From Chiloscyllium plagiosum (taxonomy: Eukaryota), in NCBI RefSeq assembly GCF_004010195.1, contig NC_057755.1, positions 8,905,306 to 8,969,305 on the forward strand: DNA of 64,000 nucleotides. Direction: 5' to 3'. Both the position numbers and the translations under genes were made by a program. The notes under the pieces were generated by a model that was not told the DNA's origin, did no database searches, and worked only from the letters and a program-made list of their open reading frames with translations. Below are positions 1 to 40,370 of this stretch, in pieces. Each line of letters opens with the position of its first letter. Position 1 is the stretch's first letter.

Positions 1-492
1 CTTCCCCTTTCTCTCGGGGATCTGGGGTGGAGGGTGCTGCATGCAGCAGTCCCCTGCAACCGCAGATTGCGGTGGTTCACGGACTCCCAGCCCAACTGCT
101 TGTTCTGTGGCGCTGTGGAGTCCGTGGACCACGTGTATATTGTGTGTTGGCGTTTGCACTCCCTTTTTGATTTTCTTAAAAACCTCCTCCTCTGCTTTTG
201 GTTGCAATTCAGTCCCACACTCCTGATCTTCGGGTACCGGGTACGTTGGAGGGAGGGCAGGTCTGAAGACCTCCTCGTGAGTCTGCTCCTGGACCTGGCC
301 TTTTGTGAAGGGCACTGCTTGTCACTGGCCACTCGTGTGTTTTCCTATCTTCCTGGTGGTGGAAATTGAATAAAGATTCGTACACCTTGTGTCTCTCACT
401 GTGGCTCACACCTGCACACAAACAACATGGGTGCTGGGGGGAAAAATAAGCACTACCACAGTTAGGCGGTAGTGTGGGTGTTAAAAAAAAAA
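1..492 (+). mobile_element. Tx1-clade non-LTR retrotransposon, 3' end (copy 1, runs off the window)
   Basis: Aligns to 5401-6110 of copy 2: ORF2 C-terminal cysteine-rich region (CLFCGAVESVDHVY), 3' UTR with AATAAA and an A-tail. About 225 bp equivalent to ~5698-5922 is deleted. Confidence 0.9.
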
Positions 493-839
493 GAAACAGG
501 AGTGTCCGAGGTTCTGTGCACTCTGAGAGCTTGCTCAGAGGGAGCTGGATCAGTGTGTGTGGAAGGACTCACGTCCTTGAAGGTGTCTGAGAGGAAGGGG
601 ACTGTCTCTGGACAAGCTGCCCCACATCCAGTGTTCTCGAAAGAGGGAGGAAGGAACGAAGAAGAAGAAGAGGAGGAAGAAGAGGGGAAGGAGGGGGATG
701 CAGAAGGAGGTGGGAAATCTAAGTCCTGGGCCTGCTTTTGGAGCTGCAACCTGGGCCTCACCCAGGTGAAGGGAGTGTTGCTGCTGACCTGGGGCCCACT
801 CCCAATGCTGGTCTCTGGAATCGCACCCGGACCTTACTC

Positions 840-1270
840 AGCTGCTACTGTTTGGGGCCTGCCTCACTGCTGCTGCCTGGGCCTCGCCTTGGGCCCCTCC
901 CAGAACCTCCACCGCGGCTGCTAGAGGCCCACCTCCACTGCTGCTGCCTGAGACTCGCTTGGGGCTGCCTAGGACTTGCCTTGGGGACCCCCCTCAACAG
1001 GTCTGCCCCCAACGCTGCGACCAAACGCCTACCTGGGACTCACTCTGGTGCAGCCTGGGACTTGCCTGAAGCCTGCCTTCACCACTGCTGTTGCCTGAGG
1101 CCTGCCTCCACTGCTGCGACCAGGGGCCTACCTGAGAATCACTTTGGTGCTGCCTGGGACTTGCCTGAGGCCTGCCTCCACCGCTACTGTTCACTGAGGC
1201 CTGTCTCCACCACTGCTGTTGCCTGGGGCCCATACTGGACTCTCATCATGCCTGTTTCCACCAGCCGCAG
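840..1270 (+). repeat. Degenerate tandem monomers (GCCTGCCTCCACTGCTGCTGCCTG-like) in the Tx1 5' UTR
   Basis: The motif cctgcctccac(c/t)gctgctg(t/c)(t/c)tgcctg(a/g)g recurs about ten times directly upstream of the ORF1 ATG at 1282. Confidence 0.7.
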
Positions 1271-1281
1271 ACAGCAAAAGC

Positions 1282-2460
1282 ATGGCGAGTCCGAAAATCG
1301 CAGGGCCCAGCCGCACCTCCGCCGGCGTAGCCGCTGACTTAGGCTCGGCTGTCCAACCCCGTCTGCAACCACGACCCCCTTCAGGCACCTGACTAAACGC
1401 CTGGGGGTCAAGGACGATCCCCACCCCAACATGACCATCGAGGTGTGCAGTAAGGCCATGGCGAGAGCGGTCGGCCCACTGGCCATCGTTGCTGCGGCCA
1501 GGATCTAGGGGAAGGCCGTGGTTTTCCTAAAGACCGAGCAGGCGGTCCACCTGGCCGAGAAGAGGGGGCTTACTGTGAGCGGGACACATTTGCCCGTTGA
1601 CTCCTTGGAGGTTATGGACCAGAGGGTCGTCATCTCCAACGTCCGGCACTTCATTGCCAGCGAGCTCCTTCTTCCCCACCTCAACACCTTGGGGGAGATC
1701 CGGTGGAGTGTCCAACTGCTCCAGCTCGATCTCAAGTACCCTGCCAGGTGTTTATTTAACTGATCCAGGAGGAGGTAACCAAGGGCTAGTTTACCCTCCT
1801 CCATGAGGGCGCAGCCTACCGCGTCTTCTGGACAGTGGATGGTGTGCAGTGCAATATTTGCGACGAGGTGGGGCACATAAGAAAAAACTACCCCACCCAG
1901 ATGGCTGCCCTGTCCACACCAACGGCTGATGGTGGTGCGGCCGCACCTACTTCCCCTCCCCCGAAGTCGACACAACAAGCCGGCAGTGGTGGCTAAGCCA
2001 GAGGCTTCCAATGCCTTAGCCCCTGTCAGGGAGGGGTGTGAGTGTCCGGCCGGCCGGAAGGTGCTCAAGAAGACGCAACGTGCCAGGCCCGGCCACGTGG
2101 AGACCACCCTGTCGCCTTCCCCTACACCTAGCCCATGAACTGCTCCGCCCCGGCATGACAGGTCCCCCGCGGCCGTGTCTGTGTCGCCTCGGCGTGGAAA
2201 CCCTGACCTCCAAACCCCCAAACCTGTACCTAACCCCAGCCCTGCTGCACCCATTGGCCACACACCCTACCCCCGCCCCGTCACAGAAACTCCTGGGGCT
2301 TCAACGCCTGCTCCTTGCCCGGGGGCCCCTGAGCCCGATCCCCGCCCGACCCAGCCACACCCTGGTACTAAGCTGTGGGGAACCACCGCTGCCTCACCTC
2401 CTACAGCAACTGTGTCTCTGGGCCCTGGAGGGGGAACTGGGTCCCTGCCTTCCTGCCACT
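1282..2460 (+). pseudogene. Tx1 ORF1 (RRM-like plus zinc knuckle), disrupted
   Basis: Fragments AVGPLAIVAAARI*GKAVVFLKTEQAVHLA...RVVISNVRHFI and a degenerate knuckle QCNICDEVGHIRKNYP (~1846-1895). Contains stops and frameshifts. Confidence 0.8.
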
Positions 2461-2469
2461 GGTTTATCA

Positions 2470-5400
2470 GGTGATGTGGGCGGGGATCGGGCTCAGGGGC
2501 CCCCGGGCCAGGAGCAGGCCTGCACCGGTTGGGCGTCGGGGAGGAGGTTGGGGGACTTGGTCAAGTCCTTCGACCTGGTGGCCATCTGGCTGAAACTCCA
2601 TCCCGACTCCATCGCCTTCACCTTCGTGAGCCTGAGGTCGGTGCTTCCAGAATCGACGCCTCCTGTTTTCCGACGGCCTCCACGCAGCAAGTGTAGTGCA
2701 TGGACCATCACCTGGTGTGGGCAGATCTCCATCCGTTCGGTGCCAGGCCCGGCTCTGCGTACTGGCACTTTAACAACCTGCTGCTGGAGGACCAGCGGTT
2801 CCGGGACTCGTTTCTTCGTTTCTGGGTCGGCTGGAGAAGGAAGCAGGGAAGCTTCCACTCCCTGAGGCTATGGTGAGACGTGGTCAAGGCTCACATCAGC
2901 GTTTTCTGTCAGGAGTACGCGAGGGGATCGACAAAGAGGCGGAAATCCAGGATCAGGAAGTTGGAGAGGGAGATGCTCGACCTGGAGTCACGCATTGGTC
3001 AGCCCGATGCAGACCCGGCCCTGCATGGGGTGTACAAAGATAAGAAGACCGCGGTCCGGGACCTGCAGCTCGTCGGGGCTCGAGGCGCTTACGTGAGGTC
3101 GCGGATCCAGCTCCTCCAGGACCTGGAACACGGATCCCCCTTCTTCTATTAGCTGGAATAAAGGTGTGGCGCCCGTCACCAGCTCCTTGTGCTGCTGGCC
3201 GACGACGGGTCCCTCGTCTCGGATCTGGAGGGTATCAGGGCCCACATCCAAAACTATTATACGGTTCTGTTCTCTCCGGATCCGTCCAGCGAGGATGCTC
3301 ACAGAGTTCTGTGGGAGGACCTGCCGCAGCTCGGCCAGGAAAACGCCGGAAGGCTCGACACTCCCGTCACCTTAGAGGAGCTGACCGGCGCTCTCGAGGG
3401 GCAAATCCCTGGGGCTGGACAGGCTGACTGTGGAGTCCTTCAGGGAGTTCTTAGACGTCCTGGGGAGCGACTACACACAGGTCCTGGGGAGTGTCTAAAT
3501 GCCGGAGAGCTGTCCCTTTCTTGACGCAGAGCGGTCATCTTCCTGCTGGCAAAGAAGGGGGACCTTCATTCTTTAAAGAACTGGCGTCCAGTCTCCCTCC
3601 TCAGCACGGACTACAAAATCTTCACCACAGTGTTGACTTCTTGCCTGACTTCCACGCTGGCCCACATGATTGACCTGTACCAGTCCTACATGGTCCCGGG
3701 CCGGAAGATATATGACAACATCCAACTTGTCCGGGACCTGATCCATTTTTGTCGACGGGCTGGTCTGCCGAGCACCTTCCTGTCTCTTGACCAGGAGAAG
3801 GCATTCGAAAGGGTCAATCACGAGTACCTGCTCGGGACTCTGCGGGCATTCGGTTTCGGGACGCAGTTTGTCGCCCGGATCCGACTTTTGTACGCCACCG
3901 CAGAGTGTTTAGTTAAAGTTAATGGGTCCCTGATGGCGCTGCTTCGCTTCAGGAGAGGAGTGCGTCAAGGCTGCCCCCTGTCCGGCCAGCTGCATTCCCT
4001 ATGCGTGGAGCCTTTCATGCACCTCTTGCAGAGGAGGTTTCCGGGGCTGGTTCTGTGCAGCACGGGCATGGGGGTGTTCCTCTCGGCCTACGCCTTCGAT
4101 GTGCTCCTCACTTTCAATGACCCGTTTGACCTGGGGAGGATGCGCGAGTGCTGGGCCGTGTACTCGGCAGTATCTTCCACCTGGATCAACTGGGCCAAAT
4201 GTTCCGGACTACTGGTCGGTCCATGGCGAGTGGACTGCCTGCTGGAGGAGTTAAAGGTGTTCAGTTGGAGAACCACCCATCTCCTCCAGCTGGGGGTCTA
4301 CCTTAGCCTGGCTGAGAAATCCTAGCTGACAAACTGGCATCCTAGGTGCCAAATACACGGCTGGCCTAGGCCGCTGGACAGGACTGCTCCGAGTGCTATC
4401 TTGCAGGAGTCGAGTGCTGGTCATAAACCAGCTGGTAGCGGCCATGTGTGGAACCAGCTGGTCACTTTGGTCCCTCCTCCTTGTTTTGTCGCTGGCATCC
4501 AGAGAACTTTGATTGACTTCTTCTGGGACATAAAGATGCAGGGGTCGCTGCACAGGTTCTGACTCCCCCTATTGAGGAGGGCGATCAGTCGCTGGTGAGC
4601 GTCCACACCCAGGTCACAATGTTCCACCTTCAGACTAGGCAGCGATACCTTTATGTTGAGCCTCCTCCTAAATGGTGCGCCCTGGTGACGTACTTTTTCC
4701 GCCAGGTGCGTAACCTCAACTATGACACACAGCTCCTGTTCATCGACTGTGACGGTTTGGAGGTGGCCCTCAAGACGCTGCTGTCTTTTACCAGGACCTG
4801 ATCACTGTCTGGAACATGGTCAAATTGTGTCGTACTTACCCTTCGGCAGGAGTAGCGGCTGTGGTCAGGGAGCCATTGCTCAGGAATCCGCACCTCCATA
4901 CTTGCGGTTTGGAGTGGCTTTCGGAGGGGAGGGCCATGGCAGCGAGGGTGACCATGGTCGGGGACGTGCTGGGTGCTGGGGGTCTGGGCTGGACGCTGCC
5001 AAAGGACATAGTACGCAATGCAGCGGTAGACATCCGGTACGTGGCAACCGCCATCCGACAATTTAAAATGGCAGTTATTGGACCCGACATAGTGCACCAG
5101 TTGAAGGATGCTCAGGTGTACGGTGGAATCCCGTCCGCGCTCACCCCAGCCTGGACGGAGTTTCACATTTGCCCCAAGGTCCCATACTTCCAGCGGGAGC
5201 CTGTGCCCCACAACCTGAGCGGTCTCCGGAATTTTAGTTTTGTCCCTTTTAAGGACGTAAAAAGGCGGGCCCTGTATCGACTGCTACTGCACACCATCAA
5301 TCTCTCCTCCCTCATCCACCGACTGGACACACCTTGGCGTGCCCATTTGCCACTGGGCGGTGGGGATCCCCAGTGGAGGGCTCTCTACGCTGGAATCCTC

Positions 5401-5880
5401 CACCTTTCTCTCGGGGATCTAGGGTGGAGGGTGCTGCACGGAGTGGACACCTGCAAATGCAGATTGCAGTGTTTCACGGACTCCCAGCCCAACTGCTTGT
5501 TCTGTGGCGCTGTGGATTCCGTGGACCATGTGTATATTGACTGTGGGCGTTTGCACTCCATTTTCGATTTTCTTAACAACCTCATCCTCTGCTTTTGGTT
5601 GCACTTCAGTCCCACGCTTCTGATCTTCGGGCGGCCGGTATGCAGGAGGGAGGGCAGGTCAGAAGACCACCTCGTGAGTCTGCTCCTGAGCCTGGCCAAA
5701 CTGGCCATAAACAGGTCCAGGCAGCGGGCCGTGGAGGGGGTCGTTAGGGCCGACTGCCTGCCCCTCTTCCGCGGGTACGTTAGTGCCCGGATGTCTGACA
5801 CCCTGGAGTTGTTCAGGGAGAGGTGGGTGCCGCAGGTAGTGGAGTGCATTATTTCCACCTCCAACTCTATCTTGATTTAA
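2470..5880 (+). pseudogene. Tx1 ORF2 (partial APE endonuclease, reverse transcriptase, C-terminal CCHC region), disrupted
   Basis: WHFNNLLL, NWRPVSLLSTDYKI, LSLDQEKAFERV, GVRQGCPLSG, and YAFD in place of YADD. Multiple frameshifts; the endonuclease N-terminus is largely deleted. Confidence 0.9.
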
Positions 5881-6071
5881 TCACTGCCATCCCCTTCACT
5901 GTCTGATCACACAGCATTGCCCTTTGATGTGAAGGGCACTGCTTGTCACTTGCCACTCGGGTGTTTCTTTATTACCTGGTGGTGGAAACTGAATAAAGAT
6001 TCTTGCACCTTGTGTCTTTTACTGTGTCTCACACCTGCACACACACATGGGTGCTGGGGGGGAAAATAAGC

Positions 6072-6312
6072 ACTACCGCCGTTAGGTAGAAATGTGGGGG
6101 TAATAAAAAAAACAAAAAAAGACAGAGCCAACAAAAAAAAAGAAAAATAAATAAACAGGAGCGTCAGAGTCTTCTAATTTAGGGGGCTGACTACTACCGC
6201 AGTTAGGTAGAAATGTGGGGGTAATAAAAAAACAAAAAAAGACAGAGCCAACAAAAAAAAAGAAAAATAAATAAACAGGAGCGTCAGAGTCTTCTAATTT
6301 AGGGGGCTGACT
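6072..6312 (+). repeat. Near-perfect 2 x ~120 bp tandem duplication spanning the Tx1 tail/target junction
   Basis: actaccgc...ataaacaggagcgtcagagtcttctaatttagggggctgact occurs at ~6072-6192 and ~6193-6312. Confidence 0.9.
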
Positions 6313-8536
6313 CTGTGCTGGCTGGGCCATAGTCAGTGTATTACTGTTGCAGTAGGTTTCTGCTTCTTTTTTTTTGTGGGCGAAACCTGATTCCTGAACT
6401 GGCTGAATTATATAGCCACTTTGTTAACTGGCATTCCTTTTTGAGAACTGATATCTAAACTCTTGATGCACACTATCTGTTCTAGGTGTAACTCAGTTCT
6501 CATTAGGGAACCGTTGTTTCACTGGCTGGTTACATCCTGTGTTAGTCTTTTCTCTTTTTACTTTTGAGAAAATGACAATGTTAATTTTGTGGTAGGGCTT
6601 AGCCCTTGGACTCTCGTTTCCTTTGTTTTTTGTAAGTGTCTTCACTTTTTTTGTGTGTTTTGACTGAGCCCTTTTGAAGGGATACAGCTTACCCGCTGAG
6701 CTGTTCCTGATTGGAGGCCTAGCCCTGGGACTGGGCCTCTGAAGATTGAACACCTGTGTGTGTGCTGGGAGGTGAGCACTTGCTGTATCCTGCAGTTTGG
6801 GAGAAGACCTCGCCTTCACGCATGGCCCAAACCCCTGTGAGTTAACTGCACCTTTACAATATGCTGTATTCCTGTGAGCGGGCCTGGTTCTCCAAGGATG
6901 GGCCTGGACTCCATGGAGATTGAATACCTGTGTGCTGTGGGGTGTGCATTTGCTGCCTTCAGGAGTGGACTCTGCCCTCGGTTGTGGACTCTGTTTTTAG
7001 CAACGAACTCTGCAGTTTGGAGTGGACTCCATTTTTGACAATGCACTTTGTATACTGGAGTGGGCTCTGTTCCTGGGAATGGACTATACATTTTGAAGAG
7101 AACTGTCTATGCTAATGGACTATATGTATTAGAAAAGACTCTGTTTTTGGTAATTAGCTATCATGTGGTATGTTTGGGTTACCACCTACACTATCTTGTG
7201 TGGCCCAGGGTCTGGCAGGCCTAACTGTGAGCTGGCGAGGTCATAGGTCGTCCTGAATGCTGTCACCCTGACAACCGGAGCGTGGGTAAGCAATCCTGTG
7301 AACCTGAATGTTGGTAGGCTGTCCCGAAAGCTGGAGGGTGGGTAAGCCACTCTGATGCCAATCTCCCGAGAGCCAGAAGGCGGGTATGGTATTCTGAGTG
7401 CTGTCGTCCCGAGAAGGGGTAATCGGGCCAGGCTGAGCTAGAGGTGGTCGGAAGGTGTGTCAAAACAGCCGAGAGTCACAAGGTGCGTTGGGGGAGGCTC
7501 AGATTAGGAAGGTTTATTAGATTACTTACAGTTTGGAAACAGGCCCCTCGGCCCAATAAGTCCACACTGACCCGCCGAAGCATAACCCACCCAGAACCAT
7601 TCCACGACATTTACCCTCTCACCTAAAACTACGGGCAATTTAGCATGTTCAATTCGCTTAACCTGTACATTTTTTGGATTGTGGGAGGAAACCGGAGCAC
7701 CCGGAGGAAACCCACACAGACACGGGGAGAATGTGCAAACTCCACACAGTTAGTCACCTGAGGCGAGAATTGAATCTGGGTCTCTGGCGCTGTGAGGCAA
7801 CAGTGCTAACCACTGTGCCACCGTGCCGCCCACATGGGATCCTCTGTGTGCTGTCGTCCCTGGGGAAGGGGGCGGGTTGTCCTAGAGGTGCCCGGAATGT
7901 TTGTCAGGGTAGTCCACAAATCTGGTGGCGCATCAGGGTTGGTGAGAGCCCAATGGTATGTAGGGGCAGATCGAGAGACGGAAAGCCGGAAGGCCATCCT
8001 CAGCGCTGTCACCCAGGGCGGGTAACGTGGCGGGCTGTCTGAGAGGTGGTCGAAAAGTGCTGAAGATGGTTAGTGAAGTCAGAAGGTGGGTAGGCCGCCC
8101 TGACCGCTGTCACCCCGGGCGAGTACTGGGGCAGGCGGTCCTAGAGGTGCTCGAAAGGTGTGTCAGGCCGGACCGAGAACTGAAAGGGGCATGGGGTGGA
8201 CCGAGAGCCAGAAAGTGTGTAGGGACTGGCTGCCTTAGAGTGGCCGGAAGATGGGAGGGACGGTGGGCCTTGCTGGGTTTTCTGGGGTACTGTATTGTAT
8301 GCACTGTTTCTTTATGTATTTGAATTGTCTTGTTTGTACAAATGTCTTTGTTCCTGTTTTGTGGTGATTGAAGCTAGGATTTGAGATTTGTCCTCATTTC
8401 CATGAAAACTGGTTGACCGTTAGGGTTTGGGGCCTGGCTTTGCTGCCCCTCTCCCTTGTAAAATTGCTGTTTCTCTGAAAATAGCTGTAAATATTAATTC
8501 TTTTGAAAACTGAGAATTATTTAATAAAATATAAAA
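6272..8536 (+). mobile_element. ORF-less ~1.9 kb poly(A)-terminated element (element A, copy 1), putative non-autonomous Tx1 passenger
   Basis: Begins with LTR-like aaacaggagcgtcagag. Contains TGGACTCT and gctgtcgtcccgagaagg sub-repeats. Ends in a T-rich tract, AATAAA and A-rich sequence. Homologous throughout to 8533-11036. Confidence 0.7.
7516..7833 (-). mobile_element. HE1-type tRNA-derived V-SINE inserted in element A
   Basis: Reverse strand reads ggcggcacggtggcacagtggttagcactg (A box), the central gtggagtttgcacattctccccgtg domain and an aatct tail. Absent from element A copy 2. Confidence 0.9.
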
Positions 8537-11036
8537 ACAGGTGATTCAGAGCCTTCTCAATTTAGGGGACAGACTCTGTGCTGGTTGAGCCACAGTCAGT
8601 GTGGTACTGTTCCTGTTGGTTTCTGCTTCTTTTTTCTGGGGTGGAAACCTGATTCCTGAGCTGGCTGAATTACTTAGCCAGTTTTTTAACTGGTATTCAT
8701 TTAGTGAGGACTGATTTCTAAACTCTTGGTGCACAGAATGTATTTCAGGTGTAACTCAGTTTTCATTAGGGAATTGTTGTTTCACTGGTTTGTTACAGCC
8801 TGTGTATTACTCTTTTCTCTTTCACTTTTCAGAAACTGACAAATGTTGATTTTATGGCCGGGCTTAGCCCTTTGTCTCTAGTTTACTTTGGGTTTTTTTG
8901 TACGTGTCTTCACTGTTTTTTGGTATTTGGACTGAGCCCTTGTGAATAAATACATCTTATCAGATGAACTGTTCCTGTCTGGAGGTCTATCCCTGGGACT
9001 GGGCCTCTGAAAATTGAACACCTGTGTGTGTTCTGGGAGGTGAGTACTTACTGTGTCGTGGAGGTTGGGAGAAGATGTTTCCTTCAGGACTGGACCAACC
9101 CCCTGTGAGTTCATTGCACCTTTACAATATACTATGTTCCTTGGGAGTGGGCCAGGTTCTCCAAATACGTGTCAGGACTCCATGGAGCTTTAATACCTGT
9201 GGGGTGTGCATTTGCTGCCTTCGTGAGTGGACTCTGCCCTCTGTTGTGGACTCTGTTTATAGCAATCGACTTTGCAGTTTGGAGTGGACTCTATTTCGGG
9301 CAATGCACATTGTATACTGGAGTGGAGTTTGTTCCAGTGAGTGGACTCTACATTTTTAAGAGAACTGCTTATGCTAATAGACTCTGTGTACCAGAGTGGA
9401 CTCTGTTTGTTGGTAATTAACTTTGTCAGGTGATATGTTGGGGTTATCACCTGCACTGTCTGGTGTGTCCCTGGGTCTGGCAGGCCTAACTGTGAGCTGG
9501 GGGGGCTCATAGGTCATCCTGAATGCTGTCACCCTGAGAGCCGGAGTGTGGGTAGGCCATCCTGTGAACCTGAATGTTGGTAGGCTGTCCCGAAAGCTGC
9601 AGAATGGGTAAGCCTCCCTGATCCCAGTCCCCCGAGAACCAGAAGATGACAGGCGGTTCTGAGTGCTGTCGACCCGAGAAGGTGTAATCGGGATGGGCTG
9701 AACTAGAGGTGATCGAAAGCCGAGAGTCACAAGGCGCATTGGGGGAGACTACGATCTGGAAGGCTTGTGGGATGCCCTCTGCACTGTCGTCCCTGGGGAA
9801 GGAGACGGGCTGTTCCAGAGGAAGTCGAAAGGTGCATCAGGGTGAACTGAGAGCTGGAAGGTGCGTAGGGGTGCGGTGTCTTCGAGTGGCCAGAAGGTGG
9901 GATGGAGGGGGGATGGAGTGGACCCTACCTTCGAGAGTGGACCGAACACCTGTCAGTTAACTGTACATTTACAATGTACTGTGTTCCTGTGAGCGGGCCT
10001 GGGTCTCTGTAGATGTGCGAAGACTCTATGGAGACTGAACACCTGTGTGCTGTGAGGTGAGTATTTACTGCCTTCAGGAGTGGACTCTGCCCATGGTTGT
10101 GGACTCTGTTTCTAGCAACGGACTCTGCAGTTTTGAGTGGACTCCATTTCCGGCAATGCACTTTGTATACTGGAGTGTACTCTGTTCCTGGGAATGGACT
10201 CCATATTTTGAAGAAAATTGTTTATGGTAATGGACTCTGTGCACCAGATAGGACTCTGTTTGTTGGTAATTGACTGTTTTGTTGTTTGTTGGGTTTATCA
10301 CCTGCACTGTCTTGTGTCCCTGGGTCTCGCAGTCCTTACTGTGTCCTGAAAGCTGTCACACTGAGAGCCGGAGGTTGGTAGGCTGCCCCGAAAGCTGGAG
10401 GGTGGGTAGGCCACCCTGATGTCGATCGCTCCGAGAGCCAGAAAGTGGGTAGGCTGTTCTGACAGCTGTCGTCCCGAGAAGGGGTAATTGTGATAGGCGG
10501 AAGGTATGTCAGTGTAGTCCACGGGCCAGATGGCGCATCGGGGTGGGTGAGAGTCCAATGGAACATAGGGGCAGACCGAGAGCCAGAAGGTGGCTATGCC
10601 ACCCTCAGAGATATCACCCCGGGCAGGTACCGGGGCGGGCTGTCCTTGAGGTGGTCAGAAGGTGTGTCAGGTGGACCGAGAACTGTAAGGGTCATGGGGT
10701 GTACCGAGAGCCGGAAGGTGCGTCGGACCGTGCTGCCTGAGAGTGGTTGGAAGGCGGGAGGGATGGGTTGCTTGCTGGGTTGCTTGGGGTCAGTATTATT
10801 TGTACTCTTTTATGTAATTGGACAGTCTTGTACGTACAAATGTCATTGTTACTGTTTGTAATGATTGAAACTGGGATTTGAAGTTTGTCCTCATTTCCTG
10901 AAAACTGGTTGAACGTTACGGTTTGGAGCCTGGCTTTGCCATTCCTCTCCCTTGTAAAATTGCTGAATCTTTGTATACAACTGTTAATGTTAATTGTTTT
11001 GTAAACTGTGTATTGTTTTATAAAATAATATAAAAA
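8533..11036 (+). mobile_element. Element A copy 2, with an internal duplication of ~0.8 kb
   Basis: Same 5' start and 3' end as copy 1. Segment ~9100-9910 is repeated at ~9945-10760. Confidence 0.7.
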
Positions 11037-12993
11037 GGATGGTCAGGGGATCTGCTCACTCTGATTGCGGGCTCTGTGCAAATCACACCAGTGCCAAGTA
11101 CCATGCATGCATAAATAAGCATGCATAAATAAAGGCGTCTTGGTGACGGCAAATCGACGTCTGTGCAGGTATTTATTTGGCGACGAGATTGCCATCAATG
11201 TAAAAGTGCCTACCAGCTGAAATCCAACTGGACGTCAACCATGCAATTCAAATGGCTTTGTCATTCGAAGATTTGGCAAATGGAGCATATCAGTGGACAA
11301 TCTCACCAGGCCAACTGGTCTTTGGGGACATCACTCGAGTGAATATAATTGCATTGCCTCAGTACATAACCTGAGCAGGTGCACTCCAGGTCGGCTCACA
11401 CCAAAACCCCAAAACTAAGGCAAACCTCGGCCAAGCCATAAATAGTTTCTTCAGGATTGGAGCCAGCAAGACTTGCAGTTCCTGCTGATATGCGTACTTG
11501 TGACAATGAAAGAGTCCCAATAGCCTTAAATGAGTAATAGAGCTGTTAGGCCAGGAGAGTGCACAGCCCGGAAAGCGCACCTATAGCTAACCTGCAACAG
11601 TTAAAGTCTTTGCAACATCCAAATCAGAACGAATAAAAATAAACTTCTGGTTAAATGGTCACCTGTTTCTAATGGAGGTAGATACCGGTACAGCTATATC
11701 AGTGATTGCAGAACCAATCTTTAACAAAGTTCGCTTGGGTTTCTAACACTTAAGTTTGAGTAAGGTTTCGGCTAGAGTGAGAATCTATCCCGGGGAGCCA
11801 TTCAAGATTAAGGGAACAACTTCGCTTCCGATCTCGTCTGAGAAGCAATGGATATTGCGGATGACCATTTAAAGTGGTTAAAGTTCATTCGTCAAACGCT
11901 GTGATGATGATTGTAAGGCTATGAGCATCATCCGCTGAACATGAACTCCCGAAAGTATTGGACACGGACAATGGGATGCCATTTTCCAGCAGGGAGTTTG
12001 GAAATTTTCTGAAGTCAAATAGCATTTGACATGTTCAGACGGCATGTTCAGACAGCTCCATACCGTCCATTGTCCAATGTATTGGCGGAAAGACAGTCCA
12101 AACATTGAAGGCAAGCTTGAAGATGTTGCTTGGCAGCTTCACTGGATACCAAACTACCTCGGGTCTTGTCTGATTATTGTATCACCACTTACACAAAAAC
12201 AGGCATCGCTCCAGCAGAGTTCCCAATGAGGAGAAGAATGTGCACCAGAAGTTTAAACTAGTTATTCTAAGACCGGGGGAGGGGTAGTAGAAATAGCATC
12301 AAGAACACTAACAACAAGGCATGTACCTCCACTGAGGGAGAGAGGATGCTTTCATAAGCGGGCAAACTTTGGTGTCAAAACTACAAAATGTCACTGCATG
12401 GGAACGAGGTGAGGTCAGCCCACATGATTTTCAGATGTCTAGATGAGGTGGACCTGATCAAACATGTAGATCATATGAAAACTGCTCCCTCTAAAACGGG
12501 GCAGAAGCAAAATATACTTGTTCCCCTCAGAAAAGCCAGGATGGCTGTCCGAAACCATGGGTTATCCCTTTTTAAACACATTCGAATGCATGGCAGATTC
12601 TGAATTGGACGCAGCTTCAATAGCGTGATAGCCTCAAGAAGAGGAGGAAACTCTCCCGTGACACTCTGGCGGCAAGAGATGGTTACGGTCCAGTATGTGT
12701 CACCAGTGTCCGAGACAGAGTGGGAGGAACCACACCTGAGGTGACAACGTTGCAGTAGACGTTACAAGAGAAACTGCATGTGTCCATCCCCGGATTTGAT
12801 GGGGGAGTAATGTCATCATTGGAACGAGGGCCAAGTTTGATCGCACTGACTACGAGATCCTTGACTGAGACTGTCAACCTGGGCAAAACAGGGAGCCCTG
12901 GATAACAGAGTTAAACTGGGGATTGTGTCTGCCGAGTACCTGCCCCTCTTCAGCAGTGACGTTGACAATGTTGCCTCTTTTTAACTGGTTCTA

Positions 12994-21114: not shown

Positions 21115-22060
21115 TCTGTCCCAATCAGGCCTGTCTGTTGCTGTTTAGTCAATGGACCTGTCTGTCTAAATACAAAGAAAATTGTCAAGACAGCCTAATT
21201 TTATTTGGAAGCTAAATGTCCAGTGAGAAAATAAATCTGGTTGAATCGCTAATTGCACAAGTTGCAGTAATCCGAATAAGAAGTAAATTAACCATTTTCC
21301 TTTGAGGGTTATTACGTAGTGGAATATATTTTGAAAAATAAAAAGACACTAATTTCCTGAGAACTTGAATTAGATTTTATTGTCTTGTGTACTGAAGTGC
21401 AAATGTACATGAGTGCAGTGAAAATTGTACAATGGGAACATTGCGAGGTCCATCTTACGTGCAATGGTATATCCGAACAAAATTTCAGGTACAATTTAGA
21501 AACATAATGTTCAAAGCTAAAACTGGAAAGACGTGATTTGAAATCTTTTCTAAAGACAGAACAATGCACCTAGCAATAAAGCTATTCTGTACTAGACTGA
21601 GATGCACGTTTCCCTTCATTATTGCTTTTTAAAATAAATTGAATACAGGTACAGGTTTTCCAGTGAGGGGAATCTCACACCTATGCCTAATTGGTCCCTT
21701 TCATTTCTGATGATAGAAAAGAGCTCTGCATTTCTAAGAGGAAATCCCATTCAGGGTTATCCGCAGGAATGTGTAACTGTAATTCCATCCTGATCTTTCC
21801 TGGCTAGAATTGTATTACAATGCATAAAGTCAGTGTTATGTGACAGTGCGGTTAGAGTAAGGTGTCAGGTGGGTAATGACAGACAACAGCAGATTAATTG
21901 AGTGCAAGGTGGTGATGGTGCCAAGGTAGCAGGTATGTAGGATGCTGACTGGTAAGGGGTTAGAATACCAAGTGGGATATGGGTAGTGTAGTGATTGAGT
22001 TCCCGGATTGGGGATGCTAACCTGGTCCAATCAGGGAGCCCTTGCTCAAAGTTGCAAATA

Positions 22061-22156
22061 CGATATCTTTGCCTTTTCTTTATTGTTTATTGAGATTCTT
22101 TGTTTTCTGGATTTTCTTTTCGTTTTTGCTTATTTGAAGCAAAAAAGGAAAACAAC
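22061..22156 (+). mobile_element. Short T-rich, A-tailed insert at the TATA position of the 5' LTR
   Basis: Lies between ...gttgcaaata and aaacagcaagtcggggttctgttcac; absent from the empty LTR. Confidence 0.6.
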
Positions 22157-23042
22157 AAACAGCAAGTCGGGGTTCTGTTCACTCTGAGAACTGGCTCTGA
22201 GGAAACCAGACCAGTGTCAGGTACTTGACATGTGTAAAAAAGGGTGACTTGGTAATAGGATACCGACCTCTGTGTAGGTATTTCATTGGCGACGAGCATG
22301 AGATTAATGATGTATCCAGACAAAAACGATTACGAGATGAAATCTAACTTGACCTCAAATGTTGTCATTCGAAATGCATCAAGTGGAGCATGTGAGTTGC
22401 ACGGCATGCCGATGGAAGAGGACACTCTCACCAGGCAAACTGACCTTGGGGGATACCTCTCGAGTGAAAGCAATTGCATCACCTCAGAACATAATCCTGA
22501 GTAGATATACTCCAGGTCAGCTCATACCAATAGCCTCAAAGCAAAACCAAACTTCGGTCAAACTGTGGACATTTCCTTCAGGATCAGAGCCAGCAAACCA
22601 TTGCAGTTGTTGCCAAGATGCGGGCTTGTGATTGTGAAAGAGTCCCACTCGACCTGAAGTGTATAAAAGTACTGACATGCCGGAATCCAGGTGTGTGCAC
22701 TCCCTAAAAAGCCCACAGACAGTTGGCTTGGAACACTTACATTGTTCAGCAGCATCCAAATCAGAACCAATCAAAATAAACATCTGTTAAATGGTCAACT
22801 GGTACTACTGGAGGTAGATAACAGCACAGATGTATCAGTGATTGCAGAACCAATCTTTAAAAAATTTTGCTCGGTACCCCAACTCTTAAGTTTGTGTAAG
22901 AGTTCTATTCCAGGGAATCTTTTCAGATTAAGTGGAGAACTTCAATTCTGTATGAGAAGCAGCTGGTTCAGTTTTCAACTGATACACTTTTATGTGCTCA
23001 AACTTTTCCAATTAGAAAATAGCTGCTTTTGCTTCACTCATT

Positions 23043-27390: not shown

Positions 27391-29571
27391 GATTGCAAAG
27401 CTGTGAGCATCATCCGTGATAAACAGGCTTCTGAAAGTATTGGTCACATACAACGGGACAGTATTTTCAAGCAAAGCTTTCCAGTATTTCCTGACATTGA
27501 ATGGCATTTGGCATGTTCATACAACCCCCTAACATCCACTGTCCAATGGTCTGGTGGAAAAATCAGTCCTAATATTGAAGGCAGGTTTAAAGAAACAGCT
27601 AACAGCTTCAGTCGATACCAGAGATCTCCAAGGTCTTGCTCGATTCTCGGACCATCCCTCACACAACAACAGGCATAACTCGAGCAGAGTTGCAGATGGG
27701 GAGAAGCCTCCGCACAAGGTTCAACTTGATATTCATGGACCTGCTGGGATGATGAACAGCATCATAAACACCAATACCAGCACATGTCTCCTCTAAGAAA
27801 GATAGATAGTTTACCTCAGTGGCGAAGTTTGATGTCGAAACCATATAAATAGCTGTGGATGAGTATGAGGTGAGGTCAATGTAATATCAGATTCTGGGGC
27901 TTAAAGACTTTGGGAAAGTGAGGTGGTCCTGAACAAACGTTTAGTTCATAACGAAGCTGCTACTTTGCATAGAGGACAGGAGCAATACACACTTGTCCCT
28001 CAAAACGGCCAGAAAGGCTGTCAGAAACCATGTGTTCTCCCTCTCTGTCTCGTGTCGAGGAAATTTCCGAGGCTCAGATGGATGCAGCCTCGACACATGC
28101 ACACACAGATAAGGGGGCTGAGTGACGTGGGGGAATATCAGCGGAACTGTTGTCCAGGGATCATGTAGGAGATAAATTAAAGAAAAGAGAAAGTGAAAAA
28201 AGGTAATAAAACCAACTATGTCCTCACTCTCGGCACTGGCTTTGAGCTGCATTGTTTGGAGCTCATGTGCAGTGTGCTTGGAAATAAATAGTGACTTTGC
28301 GAAGCGATACCAGCCTTTGCCCAGAACTTTCAGTGTTAAAAGAAAGCACTACATTATTACGAACGAGAATTTATTGGAAATCTAATTTGGAATGAAAGAA
28401 AACAGTCACTTGTTCCTTGGCAGATTGAGTCTGCCGTGTGCGACAAGGGTGGAAGCTGAACCCACAGTTGCTTTCAATCAGTTACATGAGCACAAATTAC
28501 CACGTCAGATTAATTGCTTTCAGCAATAATGCAGCCATTGTGGCTTTTCAGCGTTCATAGTCTGTCCTTAGATGCTCCTTGTAGGTGGCACAGTGCTGCT
28601 TCTTTTCGACGTGCTGGTAGACTGATCCACAAAGCCGTTAGCGAGGCAATTCCAGCATTTGGAGCAAGTGTCAGTGAAGGAACAGCAATTCATTTCCCAG
28701 TCGAAATGGTGAGTGATTTGGAGGGGAACATGCAGGATGTGGTGTTCCCGTATATATGCTGCCCTTGTCCAGATGAAAGTGGTCTCGTATTGGAATGTGC
28801 TGTCTCAGGAGTTTTCGTGAATTTCTGCAGTGTATCTGGTGCATACTGCTGTCACAGAGTGTCAGTTTTGGAGCGGATGGATGTTTCTGGATGTTGTAAC
28901 AATCAAGCGGGTTGCTTTATCTGATGGTGTCAAAAACGTTGCTTATACTTAGTGTCAGTGCTCAGTATTTTTTTCACAGTGAATCTTGGTGCTGAGTCGC
29001 AACATTCAGGGAACTGCTGAGATACTTTGACGTGCATGACCATCCACGGTATATTGTAATTAATGTGCTCAGGAATAAACAGGATAAAGTAATAACAAGT
29101 CACAGCTACAGACAGGAACTTAAACCTAAATTGGCATTATATGACAGATTGAACAAACAAACTTTAATGCATTACAAAGGACGGAGTTTCTGGAGTGTTG
29201 TCAATGTATTTTACATGCATAGTTTCTCCGATGTATAGTGTAAGTTGGTACACAATAAGGTAACAACTGGGCAAGTTGTTTTTTCTTTGGAAGCAAGGCC
29301 AGAGACTGAATATGAATTGTGGAAAAGATCTTTGTATCTTACATATACTCATCCAAACCGCTAATGATGCCAGTAAAAGTAGATTTCAGAATGACAGAAG
29401 TTTGGAAGATATTCAGTTTAATCTTTGCACTTCGTGGTAGTCAATCACTGAACATGTTCACACGACGTTGTCACTCAGCTTTCAGCATAAGAAGGGGAAC
29501 TGATTGATGACACAAAGCAAAGCATTAAATATATTGTTGTGGTTCTGGTGGCCAAGCTGGAAATTTTTTGT

Positions 29572-29614
29572 TGCAAACGTTTCGTCCCCTGTCTAGGTGA
29601 CATCCTCAGTGCTT
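29572..29614 (-). ncRNA. Minimal hammerhead ribozyme motif in the Penelope left arm
   Basis: Reverse strand reads CTGAGGA-tgtcacctagacaggggac-GAAACGTTTG. Confidence 0.65.
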
Positions 29615-30735
29615 GGGAGCCTCCTCTGAAGCGCTTCTGTGGTGTTTCCTCCGGCATTTATAGTGGCCTGTCCCTGCCGCTTCCGCTTGACAGTTTCAGC
29701 TGTCCGCTGTAGTGGCTGGTATATTGGGTCCAGGTCGATGTGTTTGTTAATGGAGTTTTGGATGAGTGCCATGCCTCTAGAAATTCCCTGGCTGTTCTCT
29801 GTCTGGCTTGCCCTATGATAGTAGTGTTGTCCCAGTCGAATTCATGTTGCTTGTCGTCTGCGTGTGTGGCTGCTAAGGATATCTGATCGGGGCGTTTCGT
29901 GGCTAGTTGATGTTCATGGATCCGGTACGTTAGCTGTCTTCCTGTTTCTCCTATATAGTGTTTTGTGCAGTCCTTGCATGGGATTTTGTACACTACATTA
30001 GTTTTGCTCATGCTGGGTATGGGTCCTTCGTTCTGGTGAGTTGTTGTCTGAGGTTGGCTGTTGGTTTGTGTGCTGTTATAAGTCCTAGTGGTCGCAGTAG
30101 TCTGGCTGTCAGTTCTGAAGTGCTCCTGATGTATGGTAGTGTGGCTAGTCCTCTGGGTTGTGGAACGACAACGGAACGAGGACATGGCGCAACCAAAAGG
30201 ATTAGCCACACTACCATACATCAGGAGCATTTCAGAACTGACAGCCAGACAACTGCGACCACTAGAACTTATAACAGCACACAAACCAACATCCACCCTC
30301 AGATAACAACTCACGAGAACGAAGGACCCCATACCCAGCATGAGCAAAACTAATGTAGTGTACAAAATCCCATGCAAGGACTGCACAAACACTATATAGG
30401 AGAAACAGGAAGACAGCTAATGATCCGGATCCATGAACATCAACTAGCCACGAAACGTCACGACCAGCTATCCTTAGCAGCCACACACGCAGACGACAAA
30501 CAACATGAATTCGATTGGGACAACACTACCATTATAGGGCAACCAAACAAAGAACAGCCAGGGAATTCCTAGAAGCATGGCACTCATCCAAAACTCCATA
30601 AACAAACACATCGAGCTGGACCCAATATACTAGCCACTACAGCGGACAGCTGAAACTGACAACCGGAAGCGGCAGGGACAGGCCACTATAAATGCTGGAG
30701 GAAACACCACAGAAGCGCTTCACAGGAGGCTCCCA

Positions 30736-30778
30736 AGGACTGAGGATGTCACCTAGACAGGGGACGAAACGTTTGCAA
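30736..30778 (+). ncRNA. Minimal hammerhead ribozyme motif in the Penelope right arm
   Basis: CTGAGGA (30740-30746), stem II gtcacct/aggggac, GAAAC with a palindromic stem III. Confidence 0.65.
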
Positions 30779-31152
30779 CAAAAGTTTCCAGCTCGACGAA
30801 CAGAACCACAACAACGAGCACCCGAGCTACAAATCTTCACCCAAACATTAAATACATTAGAATTTCGAAAAGGTCTTCACATGGAACAGAAAAGCAAAGA
30901 CTCAGCCCTTTAAAAAGTAATAGCTATGAGAGATTCCCAATCTCAGTGAAATATTATTCGAAATGCAATTTGTTATTTTTATACAGAAGTGGTTACTTCC
31001 CATTTTCGTGGTCGAGAGACGTTTTTCCAATTCTGAGGACATGGACTTCTTTTCAGTTAATGCAGCCAAGGAAATTCCAAAAGCTCTTTCAAATTGGAGA
31101 TCTTGTTCTAATACTGAAAGTAGATCTCCATATACAGGTCAGACCTGTATAC

Positions 31153-34421: not shown

Positions 34422-34657
34422 TGTGACGACGGGAACATACTCAGCCAGGGAGACCTCACAGAATATGAGTTTCCTGATTGGGGCTGTTAACCTGGTCGAA
34501 TCAGGGAGCCCTGGCTGACATACATAAATTGGAAGATCAGGGGTTCTGTTGGCTGTCAGATCTGGCTCCAAGGAAGATGGACAAGTGCCATGTCCTATGC
34601 ACATGCAAAGAAAGGGTGACTTGGTGATGTGTTTCTGGCCTCTGCACAGTTATTTCA
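34422..34657 (+). mobile_element. Solo Gypsy LTR with an uninterrupted (empty) TATA region
   Basis: TG...TTTCA termini and 5-bp TSD atctt/aactt. Shares cctggtc.aatcagggagccctgg and aaagggtgacttggtga with the other LTRs. Confidence 0.85.
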
Positions 34658-39870: not shown

Positions 39871-40370
39871 NNNNNNNNNNNNNNNNNNNNNNNNNNNNNN
39901 NNNNNNNNNNNNNNNNNNNNNNNNNNNNNNNNNNNNNNNNNNNNNNNNNNNNNNNNNNNNNNNNNNNNNNNNNNNNNNNNNNNNNNNNNNNNNNNNNNNN
40001 NNNNNNNNNNNNNNNNNNNNNNNNNNNNNNNNNNNNNNNNNNNNNNNNNNNNNNNNNNNNNNNNNNNNNNNNNNNNNNNNNNNNNNNNNNNNNNNNNNNN
40101 NNNNNNNNNNNNNNNNNNNNNNNNNNNNNNNNNNNNNNNNNNNNNNNNNNNNNNNNNNNNNNNNNNNNNNNNNNNNNNNNNNNNNNNNNNNNNNNNNNNN
40201 NNNNNNNNNNNNNNNNNNNNNNNNNNNNNNNNNNNNNNNNNNNNNNNNNNNNNNNNNNNNNNNNNNNNNNNNNNNNNNNNNNNNNNNNNNNNNNNNNNNN
40301 NNNNNNNNNNNNNNNNNNNNNNNNNNNNNNNNNNNNNNNNNNNNNNNNNNNNNNNNNNNNNNNNNNNNNN
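39871..40370. other. Assembly gap (500 N, true size unknown)
   Basis: Run of N. Confidence 1.

Follow-up and report, generated by a model that had tools for sequence, protein, structure and literature searches.

A Tx1-clade LINE at the TATA-like box of a Gypsy-type LTR in Chiloscyllium plagiosum, and the passengers found at the same site

The window analysed here, a 64,000-nt stretch of Chiloscyllium plagiosum contig NC_057755.1 (positions 8,905,306 to 8,969,305), opens with an array of A-tailed retroelements joined to pieces of a Gypsy-type long terminal repeat (LTR). Comparison of this array with loci sampled across the genome (given L-numbers below) shows that a family of long interspersed nuclear elements (LINEs) of the Tx1 clade has entered this LTR at its TATA-like box at many loci and with a single orientation. 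We consider it likely that the ORF2 protein of the LINE chooses the site, and that it also copies unrelated passengers and host RNAs there. The insertions are mostly independent of one another rather than copies of one duplicated event.

Insertion at the TATA-like box across the genome

An element-side sample was drawn with the 3' untranslated region (UTR) of the LINE (1,546 first-look candidates, 40 scored, 30 fetched) and with the 3' end of its main passenger, a non-coding poly(A) retroposon designated C (2,043 first-look candidates, 40 scored, 30 fetched; the other end of C gave 1,343 candidates). A sequence-only reading of the window had pointed to the flanks downstream of the Tx1 3' ends as the place to look for targeting. 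Tabulation of these flanks in our sample, with the window's own copies left out, placed the target word (two mismatches or fewer) after 15 of 29 Tx1 and 16 of 29 C 3' ends, compared with 11 of 884 control A-runs (Fisher p 3e-18 and 8e-20; odds ratios 85 and 98, respectively). Either the word with up to three mismatches or a piece of the LTR in the same locus was found for 24/29 Tx1 and 26/29 C ends, against 54/884 controls at three mismatches. An LTR piece lay in the locus of 18/29 Tx1 and 24/29 C ends, fractions above the >20% of flanks in one repeat that the text of PMC4494074 gives as the mark of a target-specific Tx1 element.

In the converse sample, drawn from the LTRs, a word in U3 had 428 exact matches, of which the first 70 places were examined and one tandem duplicate dropped. 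Inspection by eye showed an insertion at the TATA site in 23 of the resulting 69 LTRs, an automatic test differing on two. All 61 U3-element junctions shared one orientation. Together with the flank enrichment, these counts uphold the proposal of the sequence-only reading that insertion is specific to the TATA box of the Gypsy LTR. Insertions occur in 5' LTRs (8 loci) as well as in 3' LTRs, the latter under 11 locus ids of which two pairs overlap, and sites preceded by an A-tail, with no U3 before them, likewise carry new inserts downstream. The exact U3 word was present in only 1 of 80 U3 copies reached through other anchors, which puts the number of LTRs, very roughly, in the tens of thousands.

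The geometry of the target duplications was read from 49 paired junctions, 40 of which scored well enough to be used. The duplication starts at TATA+2 in 22/40 and ends at +15 to +17 in 20/40; most duplications are 14-15 bp long and begin inside the TATA box, so that the site is rebuilt. Nine end at +26 or beyond and were judged by eye to be mostly tandem repeats of the same insert. Variants private to a locus occur on both sides of the insert at several loci, as expected of true target duplications. Off-target copies start at TAAA or AAAA and have duplications of 11-15 bp. Within stacks, the upstream member tends to be the younger, as in 28 of the 43 adjacent pairs compared and in five of the six pairs from complete stacks. 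A Wilcoxon test gives p 0.006 and a sign test p 0.07, although the pairs are not independent of one another. Tandem copies with the same 5' breakpoints were also seen at L100, L013, L040, L229, and L236, and point to local amplification between duplicated sites.

The LINE belongs to the Tx1 clade, as the sequence-only reading had concluded. The best match of a 701-aa ORF2 piece among longer proteins is the ORF2 of Xenopus Tx1L (54% over 97%), with other close relatives among sturgeon, horn shark, and skate proteins, and an ORF2 tree of 48 sequences (FastTree, midpoint root) joins the LINE, Tx1L, and the sturgeon protein with a support of 1.0. In copies other than that of the window, the endonuclease and reverse transcriptase (RT) lie in one frame and match Exo_endo_phos and RVT_1 above the cut-off, with a zf-RVT match (E 4e-5) below it. 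CCHC spacing was recognized by eye in the ORF1 of L135, and no Pfam family was detected in the two ORF1 pieces scanned. ORF2 identity among 28 copies averages 92% and reaches 99%, compared with a mean of 75% for R-U5 among 16 empty LTR pieces, which indicates that LINE activity postdates the divergence of the LTRs.

Passengers, host-RNA cargo, and R-derived heads

The C family is abundant, non-coding, and about 1.5-1.85 kb in length. Its gap lengths are not enriched for multiples of three, no conserved ORF was found in 17 aligned copies, and outside the head neither blastn nor tblastn matched C to Tx1. The lack of a common 3' tail or body and of a conserved ORF rules out that C is a deleted Tx1 or a coding element. 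An RT adjoining the C copy in L285 proved to belong to an unrelated L1 inserted into C. No tRNA, 5S, 7SL, or small nuclear RNA (snRNA) head was identified for C by Rfam in window positions 400-11300, a scan of low sensitivity that missed the head of an inserted short interspersed nuclear element (SINE); the head of C aligns to the R region of a second LTR subfamily and, like that of full-length Tx1, ends short of the AATAAA of the LTR. A variant with a double head, in which subfamily-1 R is joined to part of the subfamily-2 head, occurs in L180, L213, and L058. A third, short family with an R-like head, a T-rich body, and an A-tail is present in L022 and L209, and a matching insert lies at window positions 22046-22160.

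Cargo derived from host RNAs was found among 81 unannotated gaps screened. A ferritin processed pseudogene lies directly after U3 and the TATA box, ahead of a C fragment (L072:675-1380); it keeps its 5' UTR and poly(A) signal and carries a frameshift. At the target site in L194 (868-974 and 1219-1325) and in L022 (oriented 2070-2174), full-length U6 is joined to pieces from the 3' part of Tx1, and a tRNA-bearing piece is present in L068. Because this cargo has no sequence in common with the target or the LINE tail, the enzyme likely picks the site and recognizes poly(A) only. Other unannotated stack inserts (L062, L068, L084, L257, and L267) are likely further host-RNA retrocopies; poly(A) signals are present in some of them and a tRNA gene in one. 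Pieces of 25-90 nt resembling R or the head also occur directly before the A-tail in L005, L007, L010, L012, L019, L219, L287, and L291; they are either longer duplications with inserts of poly(A) alone or head RNAs that were polyadenylated too early.

Most full-length copies of the LINE begin with sequence from the R region of their own target. Among 28 full-length Tx1 5' ends classified by eye, 18 have a long R head, eight have a short head behind an extension, and two are cut by a deletion. The head is borne by the element and not supplied by the LTR at each site, since AATAAA is found in 0/28 of these ends versus 35/46 empty LTRs, and an extra T in 7/28 versus 0/46. A common Tx1 subfamily (L241-L270, L132, L149, L160-L163, L166, L167, and L170) retains little of the head; its junction has 70 exact matches. 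In 30 of 30 sampled copies, 21-628 nt of Tx1 3' sequence precede the shortened head, and the 5' end is thus a copy of the element's own 3' region without the poly(A) signal; some of these copies are among the youngest. Re-copying of this extension from the element's own 3' UTR in the manner of TART was rejected, as that UTR was the best match in only one of six testable copies.

The heads bear on how these RNAs are made. Of 11 full-length C copies that follow a subfamily-1 U3, 10 show C-type letters from +13; two of them have a clear subfamily-1 3' flank, and C-type R is found in 0/46 empty subfamily-1 LTRs. The C-type letters from +13 mean that C RNA began farther upstream than a start directed by the TATA box would allow. 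In L143, a Tx1 head starts near +6, and mid-stack U3 fragments occur in two C copies. The idea that transcripts all begin at the initiator-like word at +30 is weakened by head starts near +6 in this Tx1 copy and by +13 in C. A single-cell poly(A) RNA run from the same species yielded 2,320 reads at 85% likeness, heaped on the 3' UTR with poly(A) ends, a pile explained equally well by priming on genomic A-tails; no pile-up at a start was seen in this run, in which coverage is 3'-biased, and a second run gave no reads.

The array in the window

On the plus strand, the array runs from a LINE 3' end (A) through a near full-length LINE (B) and two passengers (C and C') to the R-U5 part of an LTR and a primer binding site (PBS) at 11178. 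The reference for the target is an empty solo LTR at 34422..34657 (plus strand), with TG...CA ends and 5-bp flanks alike at 4/5 positions. A-tailed junctions at 491, 6271, 8531, and 11030 each align to its TATA-like word, confirming that four A-tailed 3' ends are each followed by the same LTR segment. The duplicated target at each junction is only about 15 bp. At 491, 6271, and 8531 the LTR resemblance runs further, into the head of the next element, which at 6271 and 8531 resembles the second LTR subfamily. An extra, fifth junction at 6151 is the product of a local 121-bp tandem duplication (6072-6192/6193-6312).

Copy A (1..490) is a 5'-truncated Tx1 3' end with its A-tail and an internal deletion near 300, and is 88% and 85% identical to copy B. 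It is followed by target-site copy j1 (491..506, TATA to +16), which has a private variant in common with the upstream U3 junction in L169, and by the R-derived head of copy B (507..573), which contains a GT-repeat insert and stops before the AATAAA of the LTR. Copy B itself (507..6150) is near full length, dead, and 86.5% identical to other copies. Its ORF1 is broken from 1281, its RT lies at 3525-4250 (Pfam RVT_1, E 7e-28), its 3' UTR and A-tail are kept, and about 1.5 kb present in intact copies, spanning the end of ORF1 and the start of the endonuclease, is missing at 2449-2514. The tandem duplication (6072..6312, a 98% direct repeat) covers the tail and junction j2, which accordingly appears at both 6151 and 6271.

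Passenger C (6286..8530) has a head from the subfamily-2 R and contains, on the minus strand at 7516..7834, an unrelated SINE with many dispersed copies in the window, which may be V-SINE/HE1-like. Target-site copy j3 (8531..8547) leads into C' (8548..11029), a second copy that is 80-82% identical to C and has an internal partial duplication. Target-site copy j4 with the LTR R-U5 (11030..11177) aligns to the two other LTRs of the window and continues into the PBS and a decayed Gypsy-type internal region (11178..11740) with a remnant of a protease. All of these features but the SINE lie on the plus strand, as does a further LTR at 21936..22285 (5' limit approximate), in which the short T-rich, A-tailed insert of the third family (about 22046-22160) occupies the same TATA site. 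The target element is a putative Gypsy retrotransposon, in which the TG...CA ends of the LTR, the PBS, and a weak protease match (gag-asp_proteas, E 0.089) were observed.

The U3 half absent from the array was found about 2.4 kb upstream of the window, ahead of a 1,770-base assembly gap (L169). There, U3 leads into the TATA box and the same 15-bp word, after which comes a Tx1 piece truncated at its 5' end. Most likely, the whole stack sits inside one 5' LTR that it has split, with the assembly gap intervening. Elsewhere in the window are a self-inverted (palindromic) stretch of about 1.28 kb at 29534-30814 (92% identity) and a 500-base assembly gap at 39871-40370.

Alternative explanations, mechanism, and related systems

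One alternative, that a single chance insertion was duplicated locally in tandem to give the array, could draw on the 121-bp duplication in the window and on tandem copies with common breakpoints at other loci. It is refuted as an explanation of the whole array, and we give it next to no weight: A and B are 85-88% identical, C and C' 80-82%, the two families are unrelated, and the same junction recurs on many contigs. A hot spot lacking true specificity would require a relaxed, L1-like endonuclease able to use any T/A step, with selectively neutral insertions piling up where the site is open or bound by protein. The TAAA/AAAA nicks and 11-15 bp duplications of the off-target copies would suit such an enzyme, as would the short hairpin loop of the endonuclease. 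We nevertheless regard this explanation as improbable in view of the odds ratios of 85 and 98 over control A-runs, the single position and single orientation of the inserts, the occupancy of a third of sampled LTRs, and the new inserts taken by sites that follow an A-tail instead of U3. The enzyme may be tethered to TATA-bound proteins.

Capture of the LTR promoter accepts the same targeting and differs in supposing that full-length copies are transcribed from the CCAAT and TATA boxes of the LTR, with a start about 30 nt behind TATA, inside the R-derived head. The spacing of the CCAAT, TATA, and initiator-like words in empty LTRs is canonical for what would be a promoter, the heads retain R and drop AATAAA, and the excess of younger upstream members in 28/43 adjacent pairs would also be expected, as would four 5' ends at about +22 to +27. 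Against it stand the C-type letters from +13 behind a subfamily-1 U3, the Tx1 head starting near +6, and the lack of a start pile-up in the informative, 3'-biased RNA run, and we hold promoter capture to be rather unlikely. The suggestion of the sequence-only reading that the LINE might use the U3/TATA promoter fares poorly for the same reason, as C heads start at or before TATA+13 in 10/11 copies, and also because the short-head Tx1 subfamily is common. We lean slightly toward transcription by read-through from upstream, whether the RNA begins in the Gypsy element, in a preceding member of the stack, or in a host gene, over a start 30 nt behind TATA. In its favor are the C heads starting by +13, the U3 fragments in the middle of two stacks, and the 21-628 nt extensions at the 5' ends of all 30 sampled short-head copies. 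Read-through combined with pairing at the duplicated word fits best, and an internal promoter near +7, or mixed use of the TATA promoter, may be involved.

The overall reading, from site choice by the ORF2 protein to read-through, has the following observations to contend with. No word and no LTR was found at 5/29 Tx1 and 3/29 C ends, several of which look like ordinary TAAA/AAAA nicks. The hairpin loop of the endonuclease has 8 residues versus 11 in Tx1L and is closer to that of the relaxed L1 enzyme; given the role of this loop described in the text of PMC1950540, its length would fit a looser enzyme. Many stacks contain local tandem copies with identical 5' breakpoints, and stack depth thus overstates the number of insertions. 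The movement of C by Tx1 is argued from their common sites; no other partner LINE was found, though one may exist. The four 5' ends at +22 to +27 (L100, L112, L113, and L271) would fit a TATA-directed start, and in the window itself the outer junctions differ and the U3 is separated from the array by an assembly gap.

Under targeting by the ORF2 protein, the endonuclease would nick the bottom strand at the T/A step inside the TATA box, as in L1, reverse transcription would be primed by the poly(A) tail, and a further nick some 14 nt downstream would duplicate the site; by virtue of this duplication, each insertion would leave new targets. Recognition of the RNA would be relaxed and require poly(A) only, since C, U6, and ferritin have no tail in common with Tx1. 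Pairing between the heads and the duplicated target would likely help to attach the 5' end. A more speculative extension, which we offer tentatively, is a guild of LTR parasites in which one Tx1 enzyme serves at least two non-coding passenger families, each with a captured R minus its poly(A) signal. The members would be read from LTR-driven transcripts, and new copies would land mainly next to U3 because the enzyme would be drawn to the assembled promoter.

The closest parallel in print is the crocodilian pair Tx1-Mar and SINEU, for which the text of Kojima 2015 (PMC4494074) describes a transposon target common to both and tandem inserts around a duplication. As here, a Tx1-clade LINE prefers another transposon, non-autonomous passengers use the same site, and tandem inserts sandwich the duplication; transcription from the flanking target is proposed there. 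The crocodilian target is Mariner-N4_AMi rather than an LTR TATA box, and the heads derive from U1/U2 snRNA rather than from the R region of the target itself. In the shark, the main passenger is non-coding and, at 1.6-1.8 kb, long, and host cargo is present as well. The same source reports that Tx1-8_Crp and Tx1-4_AMi prefer LTR retrotransposons, its main text giving no position within the element, and that Tx1-4_AMi has a U1 head; the sequence-only reading, to which no family was known to target LTR promoters, thus overstated the novelty of LTR targeting.

Xenopus Tx1L, the closest named ORF2, likewise combines an APE (apurinic/apyrimidinic endonuclease)-type endonuclease with an RT and uses one site in another transposon, according to the text of PMC1950540. 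That target is the DNA transposon Tx1D and not an LTR, and the Tx1L endonuclease, with its 11-residue loop, is stringent, whereas the present family has an 8-residue loop and off-target copies. Mammalian L1 trans-mobilization, as set out in the text of PMC3747384 for U6-L1 chimeras and processed pseudogenes, resembles the present case in the poly(A)-dependent copying of U6 and mRNA, the T/A nick, and the duplication of about 15 bp, but L1 scatters its cargo, and the cargo found here lies at one LTR site. In the literature searched, which lay outside Repbase, Dfam, and most subscription journals, we found no report of a LINE targeting an LTR TATA box or of R-derived heads, and PMC9804982 and PMC4640811 contributed nothing on the first of these points. 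The principle of a transposon-targeting Tx1 with passengers is already in print; the present case departs from it in its target, in heads taken from that target, in a long non-coding passenger, and in cargo from host RNAs.

In conclusion, the C. plagiosum LINE provides a base-resolved case of a LINE that parasitizes the promoter site of an LTR and occupies roughly one in three of the LTRs sampled. The sequence-only reading supposed that the LTR might be a safe site and that insertion might disable it. An APE-type enzyme with a defined multicopy target and relaxed choice of cargo is relevant to how Tx1 and L1 endonucleases gain specificity, and also to the search for site-specific, RNA-templated insertion tools. 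The presence of target-derived heads in several families makes this a testable case for the origin of new non-autonomous retroposons. If the guild of LTR parasites proves real, it would amount to a naturally occurring system that writes arbitrary poly(A) RNA into a specific site and shuts down the LTR family that hosts it.

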